From contig JACKFN010000003.1 of assembly GCA_020632445.1 (NCBI GenBank), forward strand, positions 17,118 through 81,117: a stretch of 64,000 bases of DNA. Direction: 5' to 3'. The stretch's first letter is position 1. The number at the start of each line of letters is the position of its first letter. The stretch is from Candidatus Nomurabacteria bacterium. Lineage in GTDB: Bacteria; Patescibacteriota; Patescibacteriia; Magasanikbacterales; UBA922. A program made the translations under genes and the position numbers. A model generated the notes under the pieces. That model made no database searches. It saw only the letters and a program-made list of their open reading frames with translations, and was not told where the DNA came from. Below, piece after piece: positions 5,828-9,139 of the stretch.

Positions 5828-8248
5828 ATGCGCAACTTGTTGTGGGCCCTCGTGGCCTGTGGTGTCTCCGCGGCCGTGAGCGGCTGCGGGGACGAGACCC
5901 TCGTCCCGCAGGGGCGGGTGGTCGGTGACGCGGACGTTCAGCAGGACGCCGCCGCCGACGCCGCGCCCGACGCGGGCGAGGGCGACATGGACACGGGCGA
6001 CGCCGCGGCCCCCGACGCCGGCGACCCCTGCGAGGGCATCGAGTGCCCGCAGGGGGAGATCTGCGAGAAGGGTGAGTGCATCGACCTGTGCGCGGACGTC
6101 GAGTGCGACGACCGCGAGCTGTGCATCGCCGGAGAGTGCATGCCCGAGTGCGCCGAGGACCGCCCCTGCGAGGGTGACCTCGAGTGCGTCGAGGGGGTGT
6201 GCGAGCCCGACCCCTGCGACCCCAACCCCTGCCCCGAGGGCATGGTGTGCGAGGGGCAGCCCGGCCAGGAGCCGGTCTGCACCGAGCCGCCGCCCGAGTG
6301 CGGCAACGGCGAGGTCGAGAACGGCGAGGACTGCGACGACGGCAACACCGAGGACGGCGACGGCTGCTCGGCCGGCTGCAAGTACGAGCCGGATCCGTGC
6401 GGTGACGTGGCCTGCGGTCAGGGTGAGATGTGCGTCGACGGCCTGTGCGTCGGCGTTCCGTGTGAGGACCACGAGGACTGTCCCGTCGCCTTCGCGTGCG
6501 ACGGACAGGCCAACGTCTGCCGACCGGACCACGACGGCGACTTCGTCGTCGACATCGTGGACGAGTGCCCGGACGAGCCCGAGGACATGGACGGCGTCGA
6601 GGACGAGGACGGCTGCCCCGACATCGAGGCGTGCCCCGAGGTGCCCTGCGCCGACGGGTTCGCCTGCGTGGAGGGGGAGTGCGTCGACCTGTGCGCCGGC
6701 GTCGAGTGCAGCCAGGACGAGGTGTGCATCGCCGGACAGTGCCAGCCCGAGTGCTCCGAGGACCGCCCCTGCGGGGATGGCCTCGAGTGCGTCGAGGGCC
6801 GGTGCGAGCAGCCCGACCCCTGCGACGGCATCGAGTGCGGCCAGGGCGAGATCTGCGTCGAAGGGATCTGCATGCACGATGGCGGCGACCCGGACGGGGG
6901 CGTCGACCAGGACAGCGGCATGCAGCTCGACGACGCCGGCCCCCAGCCGGACGTCGGTCAGGAGGCGGACGGCAACGTGATCGCGCGCCCGTGCATGGAC
7001 GACAACGAGTGCCCGCAAGGGTTCCTCTGCGTCGACGGGGCTTGCAACCCCGACCCGTGCGTCGAGGTGACCTGCGACGACCCGCCGGCGGCGACGTGCG
7101 ACGGGAACATCCGGGTGATCTACGAGCAGGCGGGCGTCTGCGGTGATGACGGGGAGTGCAACTACTCCGTCGCCCGCGAGATCGAGTGCGCCTTCGGGTG
7201 CACCGACGGGGTCTGCGATCCCGAGCCCGACCCGTGCGAGGACATCGTCTGCGACTCGCCCCCCGAGCCGGTGTGCGAGGGGGACAGCTTGGTCAGCTTC
7301 GGCGGCCAGAGCGAGTGCAACGACGGGGAGTGCAGCTACTCCACCGTGGTCCGTCAGTGCGCCTTCGGGTGCGAGGACGGGGCGTGTCTGGGTGAGCCGG
7401 ATCCGTGTGAGGGCGTGGTGTGTGAGGAGCCTCCGGCCCCGCGGTGCTCGGGCGACGACCTGCTCACCTTCGGGAACGGGCAGTGCATCGATGGGGCGTG
7501 TCAGTACTCCCCGAACCTCGAGCACTGCGGCTTCGGCTGCAGCGATGGGGTCTGCAACCCCGATCCGAACCCGTGCGCGGACATCGTCTGCGCCGATCGG
7601 GAGGTTTGCATCGAGGGGGACTGCATCCCCTTGTGCGACACCTGCATCGGTGACGAGGTGTGCTACGACGCCGACGGTGACGGCATGGGTGACTCCTGCC
7701 AGCTCGACCGCGACCACGACGGCATCCCCGACCAGGTCGACAACTGCCCCGACGACGCCAACCCCGGTCAGGAGGACCAGGACGGCGACGGCCTCGGCGA
7801 CGCGTGCGACGACCGCCCCAACGCCTTCGGGCTGGGGGGAGCGGGCTTCCGTTGCATCGACGAGGAGGTGTGCTCGGGCATCGGGCGCATTCGGGTCGGG
7901 TGGATCCGCGGTATCGACCAGAGGGTCGAGAACAGCTTCGTCGTCATCGATCCGGCCGAGGATCTGATGGAGCCGTTCCAGCCGCAGCTCAACCCCGCGC
8001 GCGCCCCGTCGGTCTCCGGTGTCCGAGACATCGACGCCGACGGGATGTGGTTCCGCCCCGACACCGATGACTGGTGGGGCTGGAACGTGGCGCAGCGCCA
8101 GGCGTGGTGCGCGCAGTTCGAGGGTGCTTACCGGCCGCTTTACGCGGAAGGTGAGTGGGTCTGGTACCCGAACGGTGGCCGCTTGACCGCCGGAAACTTC
8201 GACTGCGAGGCCCCGCGTCTCGGCAGCGACGCGCCGCCGCGTCAGTAG
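5828..8248 (+). CDS. cysteine-rich repeat lipoprotein with Myxococcus-type Cys-rich repeat, EGF-like CxC repeats, TSP3 repeats and a C-terminal domain of unknown function
   Basis: Start chosen at [21 protein letters not shown] (lipobox VSGC). The upstream in-frame 5570-5827 lacks stops but is non-protein-like. Sequence contains [30 protein letters not shown], multiple CxxGxCxxxC modules with internal DNA-level duplication, and DHDGD...DNCPD TSP3 motifs. GC-rich. Confidence 0.75.
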
Positions 8249-8536
8249 TCCTCACCCCGCGCCAAAGCTTCGGCTGAGGCGCGGGTCGTCGGAACCTCGC
8301 GTTCTAACCTAAAAAATCCCACCTTATTCCCTTGAGCGCATGACCGTCCATCATGCGCTCGGGAACCCAAATCAAAACATTTATCAGAGCTGACTTACTT
8401 CAAGTCATCTGTGACAAATGTTTCAAAGACATTTGAAAATTGGTGAAGTCGTGCGATCAGGAAATATATAGCATGTATTCCTTGATCGCCCGGCACATAG
8501 CCGAAACCACAACGGTTCGACATGGAGGAGAATCCC

Positions 8537-9139
8537 ATGAACCGCATCGCCCCCCTGTTCATCATCGTGATTTCGTCCACCCTCGCCGCCTGCGACCCCG
8601 AGGTCCTGGCCCAGTGGCGCCGGGCGCTCGAGAGCGTCGCGGACTACTGCCGGCAGAACCCCGGCGATGCCGAGTGCGACGGGTTCGAGGACCCCAACCC
8701 CGAGCCTCAGCCCGAGGGCAACCTCGGCGGCGCCGGCTTCCGGTGCGCCCAGCCGACTTGCGAGTTCGCGGGCATGGTCCGCGTCGGGTGGATTCGTGGA
8801 GAGAACCAGATCATCGAGGGTAGCTTCGCGGTCATCGACCCGAACACCAACCTCGCAGATGAGCTGGTCTTCGCCCCCACTCCCGAGCGCGCGCCGACCT
8901 TCTCCGGCATCCTCGACGAGTCGACCGACGGCATGTGGTTCCGACCCGAGGGTGACTGGTGGTGGCAGACCTCGGTCGAGGAGCGCGAGCAGTGGTGCAG
9001 CCAATTCACACTGGCATGGTACCCCGAGCGACTCGCGGGCCTTCCGGAGTGGTACTCGCTGCGTGCGCAGAACCTCACCGGGCTCGGCTTTTCCGGTTGG
9101 GACTGCAGCGCCGGTCGCGACGGTCCCCCCACCAACTAA
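8537..9139 (+). CDS. lipoprotein sharing the C-terminal unknown domain of the preceding gene
   Basis: Start at second ATG preceded by GGAGGAG; MNRIAPLFIIVISSTLAAC lipobox; LGGAGFRC...VRVGWIRGENQ...SFAVIDP...GMWFRPE..WW...QWC.QF aligns with residues ~690-860 of the 5828-8248 product. Confidence 0.65.
   Translation: MNRIAPLFIIVISSTLAACDPEVLAQWRRALESVADYCRQNPGDAECDGFEDPNPEPQPEGNLGGAGFRCAQPTCEFAGMVRVGWIRGENQIIEGSFAVIDPNTNLADELVFAPTPERAPTFSGILDESTDGMWFRPEGDWWWQTSVEEREQWCSQFTLAWYPERLAGLPEWYSLRAQNLTGLGFSGWDCSAGRDGPPTN

Follow-up and report, generated by a model that had tools for sequence, protein, structure and literature searches.

What is the protein module that closes two adjacent lipoproteins encoded by a genome of Candidatus Nomurabacteria, and by what route did their genes come to lie there? 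The DNA examined is a stretch of 64 kb (the window; position 1 is its first letter), which forms part of a 147,920-bp contig of this bacterium. An earlier note, made from the sequence alone, had pointed to a C-terminal domain common to two neighboring GC-rich genes of the window, here called genes 2 and 3; the gene just upstream is called gene 1. As described below, the domain is found in only three known proteins and, as far as sequence comparison can tell, belongs to no described family; we therefore refer to it as the orphan domain. We tentatively regard it as the binding head of a foreign, myxobacteria-type surface protein. The genes and domains concerned are as follows, where GC3 denotes the GC content at third codon positions and TSP denotes thrombospondin.

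3426–5219, plus strand: gene 1, encoding a 597-aa secreted protein with TSP type-3 (TSP3) repeats (MCB9798505.1); GC3, 0.90.
5828–8248, plus strand: gene 2, encoding an 806-aa lipoprotein; the open reading frame (ORF) has its best start at the ATG at 5828; GC3, 0.92.
7667–7816, plus strand: Asp-rich, Ca2+-binding TSP3 repeats of gene 2 (aa 614–663), directly before the orphan domain.
7832–8245, plus strand: copy 1 of the orphan domain (aa 669–806 of gene 2).
8537–9139, plus strand: gene 3, encoding a 200-aa lipoprotein in which a linker of about 40 aa is followed by the orphan domain; GC3, 0.88.
8723–9136, plus strand: copy 2 of the orphan domain (aa 63–200 of gene 3).

The common ancestry of the two copies is clear. 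When the 806-aa and 200-aa products were compared by BLASTP, residues 669–804 of the former aligned with residues 63–198 of the latter with 63 identities in 140 positions (45%; E = 5e-31), and the Smith–Waterman score of the pair was 295, as compared with 34.6 ± 6.5 for 1000 shuffled sequences (z = 40). The relationship proposed in the earlier note was thus confirmed, while its dimensions needed correction: the shared module is about 140 aa long, not about 170, and the location given for gene 2 (residues ~690–860) runs beyond the 806 residues of that protein, the domain occupying residues 669–806. The two copies are old paralogues, because their nucleotide identity is only 53% and their synonymous sites are saturated (dS, about 1.2). 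A tblastn search of the whole window found exactly these two copies, which rules out a further one, whether within gene 1 or at another place in these 64 kb. Gene 1 lacks the orphan domain; what it has in common with gene 2 is the TSP3 repeats.

Between the two copies, 64 columns are invariant. These are mostly Trp, Gly, Arg, Asp, Cys and Phe, and the conserved blocks are LGGAGFRC, Cx5C, RVGWIRG, SFxVIDP, RAPxxSG, DGMWFRP, WW, WCxQF and DCxA. Four Cys are among the invariant residues, and these probably form two disulfides. The domain is rich in aromatic residues, with 8–9 Trp per copy, and acidic, with 23 and 21 Asp plus Glu against 14 and 9 Arg in the two copies. Neither copy contains any His or Lys.

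Does the domain belong to a family already described? Neither residues 669–806 of gene 2 nor any part of gene 3 matched Pfam-A or NCBIfam at E ≤ 1, and the domain matched neither PHROGs nor PADLOC at E ≤ 0.1. Against the Protein Data Bank (PDB) chains, phmmer gave noise only (E = 0.36 and 0.78), and a profile search gave no matches at E ≤ 10. The earlier note had been unable to assign the domain to a named family; a confident match to such a family was looked for, and these databases were all negative.

The survey of relatives that the earlier note had called for yielded a single outside member. HMMER was used to compare a profile built from the two copies with 1.84 billion cluster representatives, which stand for about 15 billion proteins. 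Four proteins were returned: the two of the window (gene 2 appearing in the shorter, 417-aa form of NCBI, P0002) and two others, P0003 and P0004. P0003 is a 76-aa fragment (E = 2e-8) that retains the motifs DG-aromatic-aromatic-R, WW, WCxxF and the final C-x-A-x-R-D-G-P, together with two of the Cys, namely, the C-terminal pair of the orphan domain; it is a true relative. P0004 (E = 3e-4) was rejected: it is a repeat protein with a C-terminal Por secretion tail whose score was summed over five repeats, and hhalign gave it a probability of 0.5%. When gene 3 served as the query of a word-indexed search, it was itself the only hit among 5.8 billion clusters. Scans with a back-translated pattern and tblastn found no relatives in the genomes of GTDB species, JGI metagenomes or IMG/VR, and tblastn found none in plasmids or phages. 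The family thus has three known members among the 1.84 billion representatives.

The gene for P0003 is located on a 1.6-kb contig of about 65% GC (L001) from the Logan assembly of metagenome SRR26425195, where the N-terminal part of the domain-bearing gene is lost at the contig end. In all three members, that is, in gene 2 (after the TSP3 repeats), in gene 3 and in P0003, the domain forms the extreme C-terminus. On L001, the domain-bearing gene is followed at 315–791 by a gene for a 158-aa Cys-rich lipoprotein with CNGxDDDCDG motifs of the MopE type (PF11617), and a Cro/C1-type helix-turn-helix gene lies further downstream. No literature on run SRR26425195 was found.

What is the full extent of gene 2? 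The NCBI call for this gene (MCB9798506.1) begins at Met390 and covers just the C-terminal 417 aa; the region in question is 5828–6995. The 806-aa form is the better call, because the ATG at 5828 is preceded by a Shine-Dalgarno sequence (GGAGGA), the product begins with a signal peptide and a lipobox, and the N-terminal half aligns to Cys-rich repeat proteins of Myxococcota. The exact 806-aa sequence was absent from the collection of 15 billion proteins.

A protein was regarded as a lipoprotein when its signal peptide ends in a lipobox of the pattern [LVI][ASTVI][GAS]C. Both products, which the earlier note had called lipoproteins, carry this pattern and are predicted to be lipidated: in gene 2, AVSG is followed by Cys20, and in gene 3 the signal peptide MNRIAPLFIIVISSTLAA is followed by C, with LAA preceding Cys19 in the lipobox. 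The number of Cys is even in both mature proteins. Gene 3 corresponds to MCB9798507.1 (locus tag H6758_02175), annotated as a hypothetical protein.

From its N-terminus, the gene 2 product consists of the signal peptide with the lipobox (Cys20), an Asp/Ala-rich linker, Cys-rich repeats, the TSP3 repeats and the orphan domain. The Cys-rich repeats extend over about 600 residues and contain 86 Cys. Pfam TSP_3 (PF02412) was matched at aa 614–648 with 38.8 bits (E = 7.4e-10; cut-off, 25), a match to a described family that concerns the repeats and not the orphan domain; an NCBIfam model was partially matched at aa 625–663. DUF4215, the Myxococcus cysteine-rich repeat (PF13948), remained below its cut-off at residues 156–185 (22 bits vs 27) and is present in many homologues of gene 2. 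The earlier description of a domain occurring once behind adhesin-like repeats and once alone thus agrees well with these results.

The module order of gene 2 resembles that of thrombospondins, whose signature domain comprises EGF-like repeats, type-3 Ca2+ repeats and the C-terminal, lectin-like TSP_C of about 200 aa: in gene 2, too, Cys-rich EGF-like repeats and TSP3 repeats precede a C-terminal globular domain. The orphan domain, however, is shorter (about 140 aa) and has no match to TSP_C at E ≤ 1.

The Cys-rich repeats of gene 2 match large proteins of Myxococcales, Deltaproteobacteria and Bradymonadia with 29–47% identity over 21–64% of gene 2. The closest of them, Myxococcota surface proteins such as H6699_02300 of a Myxococcales metagenome-assembled genome (P0142), P0125, P0128 and P0132, share with gene 2 the Cys-rich repeats, a high GC3 and a globular module near the C-terminus. 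Two differences are seen. One is that the end module of those proteins is a lamin-tail domain (PF00932), which occupies the place of the orphan domain in gene 2. The other is that gene 2 has TSP3 repeats between the repeat region and the end module. The possibility that the orphan domain is a divergent lamin-tail domain was rejected, as Pfam gave no hit and hhalign against the lamin-tail domains of P0125, P0128, P0132 and P0142 gave a probability of 0.8%. Since the relatives of the repeat region carry near their C-terminus a domain unrelated to the orphan domain, the arrangement suggests a stalk that accepts interchangeable heads.

Based on these features, the reading that we prefer, although we put it at slightly less than an even chance, is that the orphan domain is an exported, independently folding, non-catalytic and disulfide-stabilized binding head on a foreign surface protein of the myxobacterial type. 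Both proteins would be exported and tethered to lipid by the Cys at their N-terminus. The Cys-rich and the Ca2+-binding TSP3 repeats of the 806-aa protein would form a stiff stalk, and since the lipid anchor is N-terminal and the domain C-terminal, the domain would be a ligand-binding head at the chain end remote from this anchor. Its probable ligand would be a glycan or a protein on the surface of another cell, and the gene 3 product may present the same kind of head close to the membrane on a tether of about 40 residues. What is new here is the head domain, while the kind of modular surface protein that carries it is known.

The earlier note had left open whether the module is binding or enzymatic. 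The absence of His and Lys and of the usual catalytic set among the conserved positions favors the former. On the enzymatic alternative, the domain would be a compact enzyme or a toxin delivered at the end of a large repeat protein, as in polymorphic toxins, with gene 3 as a spare or orphan copy. A repeat protein whose C-terminal module varies, followed by a small gene that encodes this module again, recalls the orphan C-terminal cassettes known from polymorphic toxin loci, and the replacement of the C-terminal domain among the stalk relatives is in keeping with it. However, no conserved nucleophile/base set is visible in the two copies, which lack His and Lys; gene 3, equipped with a lipoprotein signal and a Shine-Dalgarno sequence of its own, is not a 5′-truncated remnant; no small ORF of the immunity type occurs between or after the genes; and neither PADLOC nor the toxin families of Pfam gave a match. 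We consider this alternative, including a toxin of an undescribed fold, improbable.

Rather less improbable, though still unlikely, is that the orphan domain serves for anchoring or assembly, either by attaching the protein to the wall or envelope or by pairing the long lipoprotein with the short one. The homologues of gene 1 are relevant here. They are TSP3-OmpA outer-membrane proteins, most of which have the OmpA C-terminal peptidoglycan-binding domain (PF00691), and their similarity to gene 1 is mainly limited to the repeats. Gene 1 itself matches TSP_3 with 29.6 bits (cut-off, 25); for its region beyond the repeats, neither a family match nor a close full-length homologue was found. In the OmpA-family homologues of Myxococcota and Krumholzibacteria, the peptidoglycan-binding domain is joined to TSP3 repeats, and the orphan domain likewise directly follows such repeats. 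On the other hand, both lipoproteins already possess an N-terminal lipid anchor, and the domain resembles neither OmpA_C nor any other wall-binding family of Pfam; PF00691 was matched in neither gene 2 nor gene 3. As for pairing, the presence of paralogous copies in neighboring genes would be in keeping with hetero-dimerization, but with only 45% identity they are not obviously co-evolving partners.

A head on a stalk that is fixed to an anchor is also the logic proposed for the TraA/TraB kin-recognition receptor of Myxococcus, in which TraA is composed of a proposed recognition domain, a Cys-rich repeat stalk and an anchor (PMC3325183). By analogy, the gene 2 product may work like TraA without being a member of its family. 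Its polarity is inverted relative to TraA, with the lipid anchor N-terminal and the head C-terminal, and of the parts that define TraA (a PA14 domain, TIGR04201 repeats and a MYXO-CTERM tag), neither PA14 nor any model of the MYXO-CTERM type was matched in Pfam or NCBIfam. Gene 1 gave only weak matches to the NCBIfam models of TraB and MtsC, confined to TSP3 (22–35 bits vs cut-offs of 350–700).

From where did these genes come? Genes 2 and 3 were correctly described as GC-rich (71% and 68%, with GC3 of 0.92 and 0.88, respectively); the earlier note did not recognize them as high-GC cassettes of foreign origin carried by a member of the Patescibacteria. The host DNA averages 41% GC, with GC3 of 0.36–0.46 in nine host genes, while genes 1–3 show 67–71% GC and GC3 of 0.88–0.92. 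The Myxococcales contig encoding a relative of gene 2 has 70.6% GC and GC3 of 0.84–0.93 over eight complete genes. The named homologues of genes 1 and 2 belong mostly to Myxococcales, Polyangiales, Kofleriaceae, Bradymonadia or Deltaproteobacteria, with some from Krumholzibacteria and a few others, and genes 1–3 encode envelope proteins of the Myxococcota style. From the gap in GC3, the taxa of the homologues and the contig of P0003 with its GC content of about 65%, we concluded that the orphan domain is probably native to a high-GC, Myxococcota-like lineage and reached Nomurabacteria by recent horizontal transfer. The domain would thus have arrived on recent gene cassettes whose base composition has not yet drifted toward that of the host.

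The GC-rich DNA has a peculiar layout: it is divided into three separate single-gene cassettes at about 3335–5275, 5590–8300 and 8475–9195, each consisting of one complete gene with a GC-rich 5′ flank of 62–238 nt and a uniform 3′ flank of 56–60 nt. The elements found at and between the cassettes are listed below.

3164–3192, plus strand: promoter-like extended −10 site, TTGACA-17-TGcTATAGT, in the AT-rich DNA upstream of gene 1.
5245–5271: GC-rich hairpin without a U-tail after gene 1, equivalent to that after gene 2.
5317–5345, plus strand: promoter-like extended −10 site, TTGACA-17-TGcTATACT, in the AT-rich DNA that separates gene 2 from gene 1.
5346–5830: leader of gene 2, about 480 nt, following the promoter-like site at 5317–5345.
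8256–8285, plus strand: GC-rich stem-loop without a U-tail after gene 2, within a 60-nt GC-rich 3′ extension.
8311–8475, no strand assigned: AT-rich spacer between genes 2 and 3, with a weak promoter-like site (8411–8440) and a hairpin with 22-nt arms (8375–8423).
9171–9191: GC-rich hairpin without a U-tail after gene 3, equivalent to that after gene 2.
9196–9263, plus strand: palindrome of the form 15-3-15 (9198–9230) and intrinsic terminator (9231–9263), where AT-rich host DNA resumes.

The spacers are AT-rich, with 37% GC at 5276–5590 (315 bp) and 42% GC at 8311–8475 (165 bp). At the Myxococcales locus, the intergenic DNA has 66–71% GC and the lowest 150-nt window has 58% GC; such intergenic DNA is far GC-richer, and therefore the spacers are not donor DNA. 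The pattern TTGACA-17-TGnTATAnT occurs at only two sites in the 64 kb, namely, those upstream of genes 1 and 2, with none expected by chance.

The hairpins at the 3′ ends of the cassettes have z-scores of −3.3 to −3.9, and the GC-rich DNA stops 5–25 nt beyond them, so that the cassettes apparently are transcript-sized. At the other end, the leader of gene 2 is strongly structured (minimum free energy, −194.9 kcal/mol; z = −6.8 vs shuffles) and contains a hairpin with 22-nt arms at 5589–5634, exactly at the AT/GC junction. Imperfect hairpins also occur at 3271–3345 (30-nt arms) and 8375–8423 (22-nt arms), at or just before the left borders of cassettes 1 and 3. Together with that at 5589–5634, each cassette has a long hairpin near its 5′ junction, and these hairpins have no sequence similarity to one another. 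A search of the long leaders against Rfam gave nothing at or near threshold.

The palindrome after gene 3 reads CATATGTGCTTATAA-GTT-TTATAGGCACATATG. A degenerate copy of this motif of about 30 nt is found after gene 1 at 5280–5309; in both places it lies 52 nt from the stop codon, and the AT-rich DNA begins with it. No further copies exist in the window. Candidate roles for the palindrome are those of an operator, a recombination site or a part of a terminator. An integron attC site or a Xer/dif-like site at the cassette ends was considered and rejected, since the core motifs do not fit when inspected by eye and the window holds no further copy.

This layout bears on a further alternative, in which Myxococcota DNA of the same sample was joined to the contig by an assembly error. 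A Myxococcales record (GCA_020633575.1, JACKDI010000010.1) has a similar locus-tag series (H6699 vs H6758), and its GC and GC3 are identical to those of the island, as a chimera would lead one to expect. Nevertheless, a chimera is very unlikely, because it would require six junctions, each situated just outside a complete gene. Moreover, the 165- and 315-bp spacers have 37–42% GC against at least 58% in any 150-nt window of the Myxococcales locus, the only two perfect extended −10 promoters in the 64 kb lie in AT-rich DNA beside the cassettes, and host genes are present on both flanks of the island in the one contig of 147,920 bp.

Horizontal transfer in Patescibacteria has been reported to reach 13% of the genome length; most of the reported transfers occurred within Patescibacteria, with a divergence of 4–35%, and recent cross-phylum events were described as rare (PMC12455944). 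The present case resembles the islands of that study in being foreign DNA in an ultra-small genome of the candidate phyla radiation. It differs from them in the extreme gap in composition (GC3 of 0.9 vs 0.4), in that each gene forms its own cassette beside AT-rich DNA, and in the strong promoter-like sites before two of the three genes. We found no literature on transfer from Myxococcota to Nomurabacteria.

Are the genes of any use to their present host? The domain may work in the donor only, the three genes being here neutral, very recent passengers that are unexpressed or misfolded and bound for loss. To this we assign a low probability, comparable to that of an anchoring role; it does not conflict with a role of the domain as a binding head in the donor. 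The composition has not shifted toward that of the host at all (GC3, about 0.9), and an oxidative folding pathway is required for the 90 Cys. Furthermore, gene 1 ends like an outer-membrane barrel protein (...GYRW), for which, to our knowledge, the Patescibacteria envelope has no obvious place. Against this, none of the three ORFs is disrupted and every one of them has a GGAGG ribosome-binding site; genes 1 and 2 are located behind near-consensus promoters in host-like DNA; and each cassette is trimmed to a complete gene with 56–60 nt of 3′ flank, which looks selected or mechanistic rather than random. As an observation on gene 1 itself, its C-terminus (...TTSFGYRW) resembles the signature of outer-membrane beta-barrel proteins, which is odd for a Patescibacteria cell.

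Several points weigh against a binding head that acts in this host. The AlphaFold2 models, built from 2-row and 3-row alignments, reached a mean pLDDT (predicted local distance difference test) of 39.6 and 44.1, respectively, and support neither a fold nor a binding surface; they share only a rough alternation of beta-hairpins and a helix over the WCxQF block, to which no weight was given. With three sequences in the family, conservation cannot separate structural from functional residues, and the domain may hold a carboxylate pair of the glycosidase type. The promoter sites are consensus matches only, a protein with 90 Cys may not fold correctly in the Patescibacteria envelope, and the genes may have been acquired too recently to function in this host. 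In the preferred reading, the folding, the disulfides, the binding and the expression are all predictions from sequence.

The island is inserted between a Wzz-like gene and a Wzy/O-antigen-ligase gene, the latter being closely followed by genes for a glycosyltransferase and a GHL15 protein; from these neighbors, the locus is one for surface polysaccharide. A more specific proposal can be made: the Nomurabacteria cell may have captured surface-protein genes of a Myxococcota-like host as transcript-sized units, and may display their products to recognize, dock onto or mimic that host. The orphan domain would then be a host-recognition head, with genes 1 and 2 placed behind near-consensus promoters of the recipient's type and gene 3 behind a weak promoter-like site only, and the capture would have followed an unusual route, possibly via RNA. 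We regard this proposal as improbable, about as much so as the toxin alternative.

Other features of the window deserve brief mention. Next to the island, a small host gene at 9276–9692 (minus strand), convergent with gene 3, encodes a coiled-coil protein of 21-nt (7-aa) tandem repeats with the units DQRFDGI/DQRLDGM; direct repeats span 9393–9583. Three other patches of at least 58% GC exist in this window of 41% GC: 21226–21825, with a ClpP-like ORF on the minus strand at 21295–21873 (Pfam CLP_protease, E = 7e-7); 43951–44275, with a 79-aa Cys-rich ORF (43976–44215) in AT-rich DNA followed by a terminator-like hairpin; and 58476–58700, without a clear ORF. These patches may be older or smaller foreign cassettes. 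A full-length LOOT RNA (RF03000) is found at 30907–31020 on the minus strand (81 bits vs the gathering score of 46.4).

Taken alone, the domain adds one more family of unknown function, albeit an unusually isolated one, with three members among about 15 billion proteins. Its context outweighs the domain itself: a surface protein of the myxobacterial type has apparently been transplanted very recently into an ultra-small Patescibacteria bacterium, at a surface-polysaccharide locus. The layout of the cassettes, in which a foreign gene with a hairpin-ended flank is placed beside AT-rich, host-like DNA with strong promoter-like sites before two of the three genes, is an oddity of interest for studies on the domestication of foreign genes in reduced genomes. 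Should the proteins be made, they would be candidates for the molecules by which an uncultured episymbiont touches its partner, and the donor lineage would hint at who that partner is. If the genes were indeed captured from a Myxococcota-like host, the locus would name a host lineage for Nomurabacteria and point to an unusual route of gene capture.

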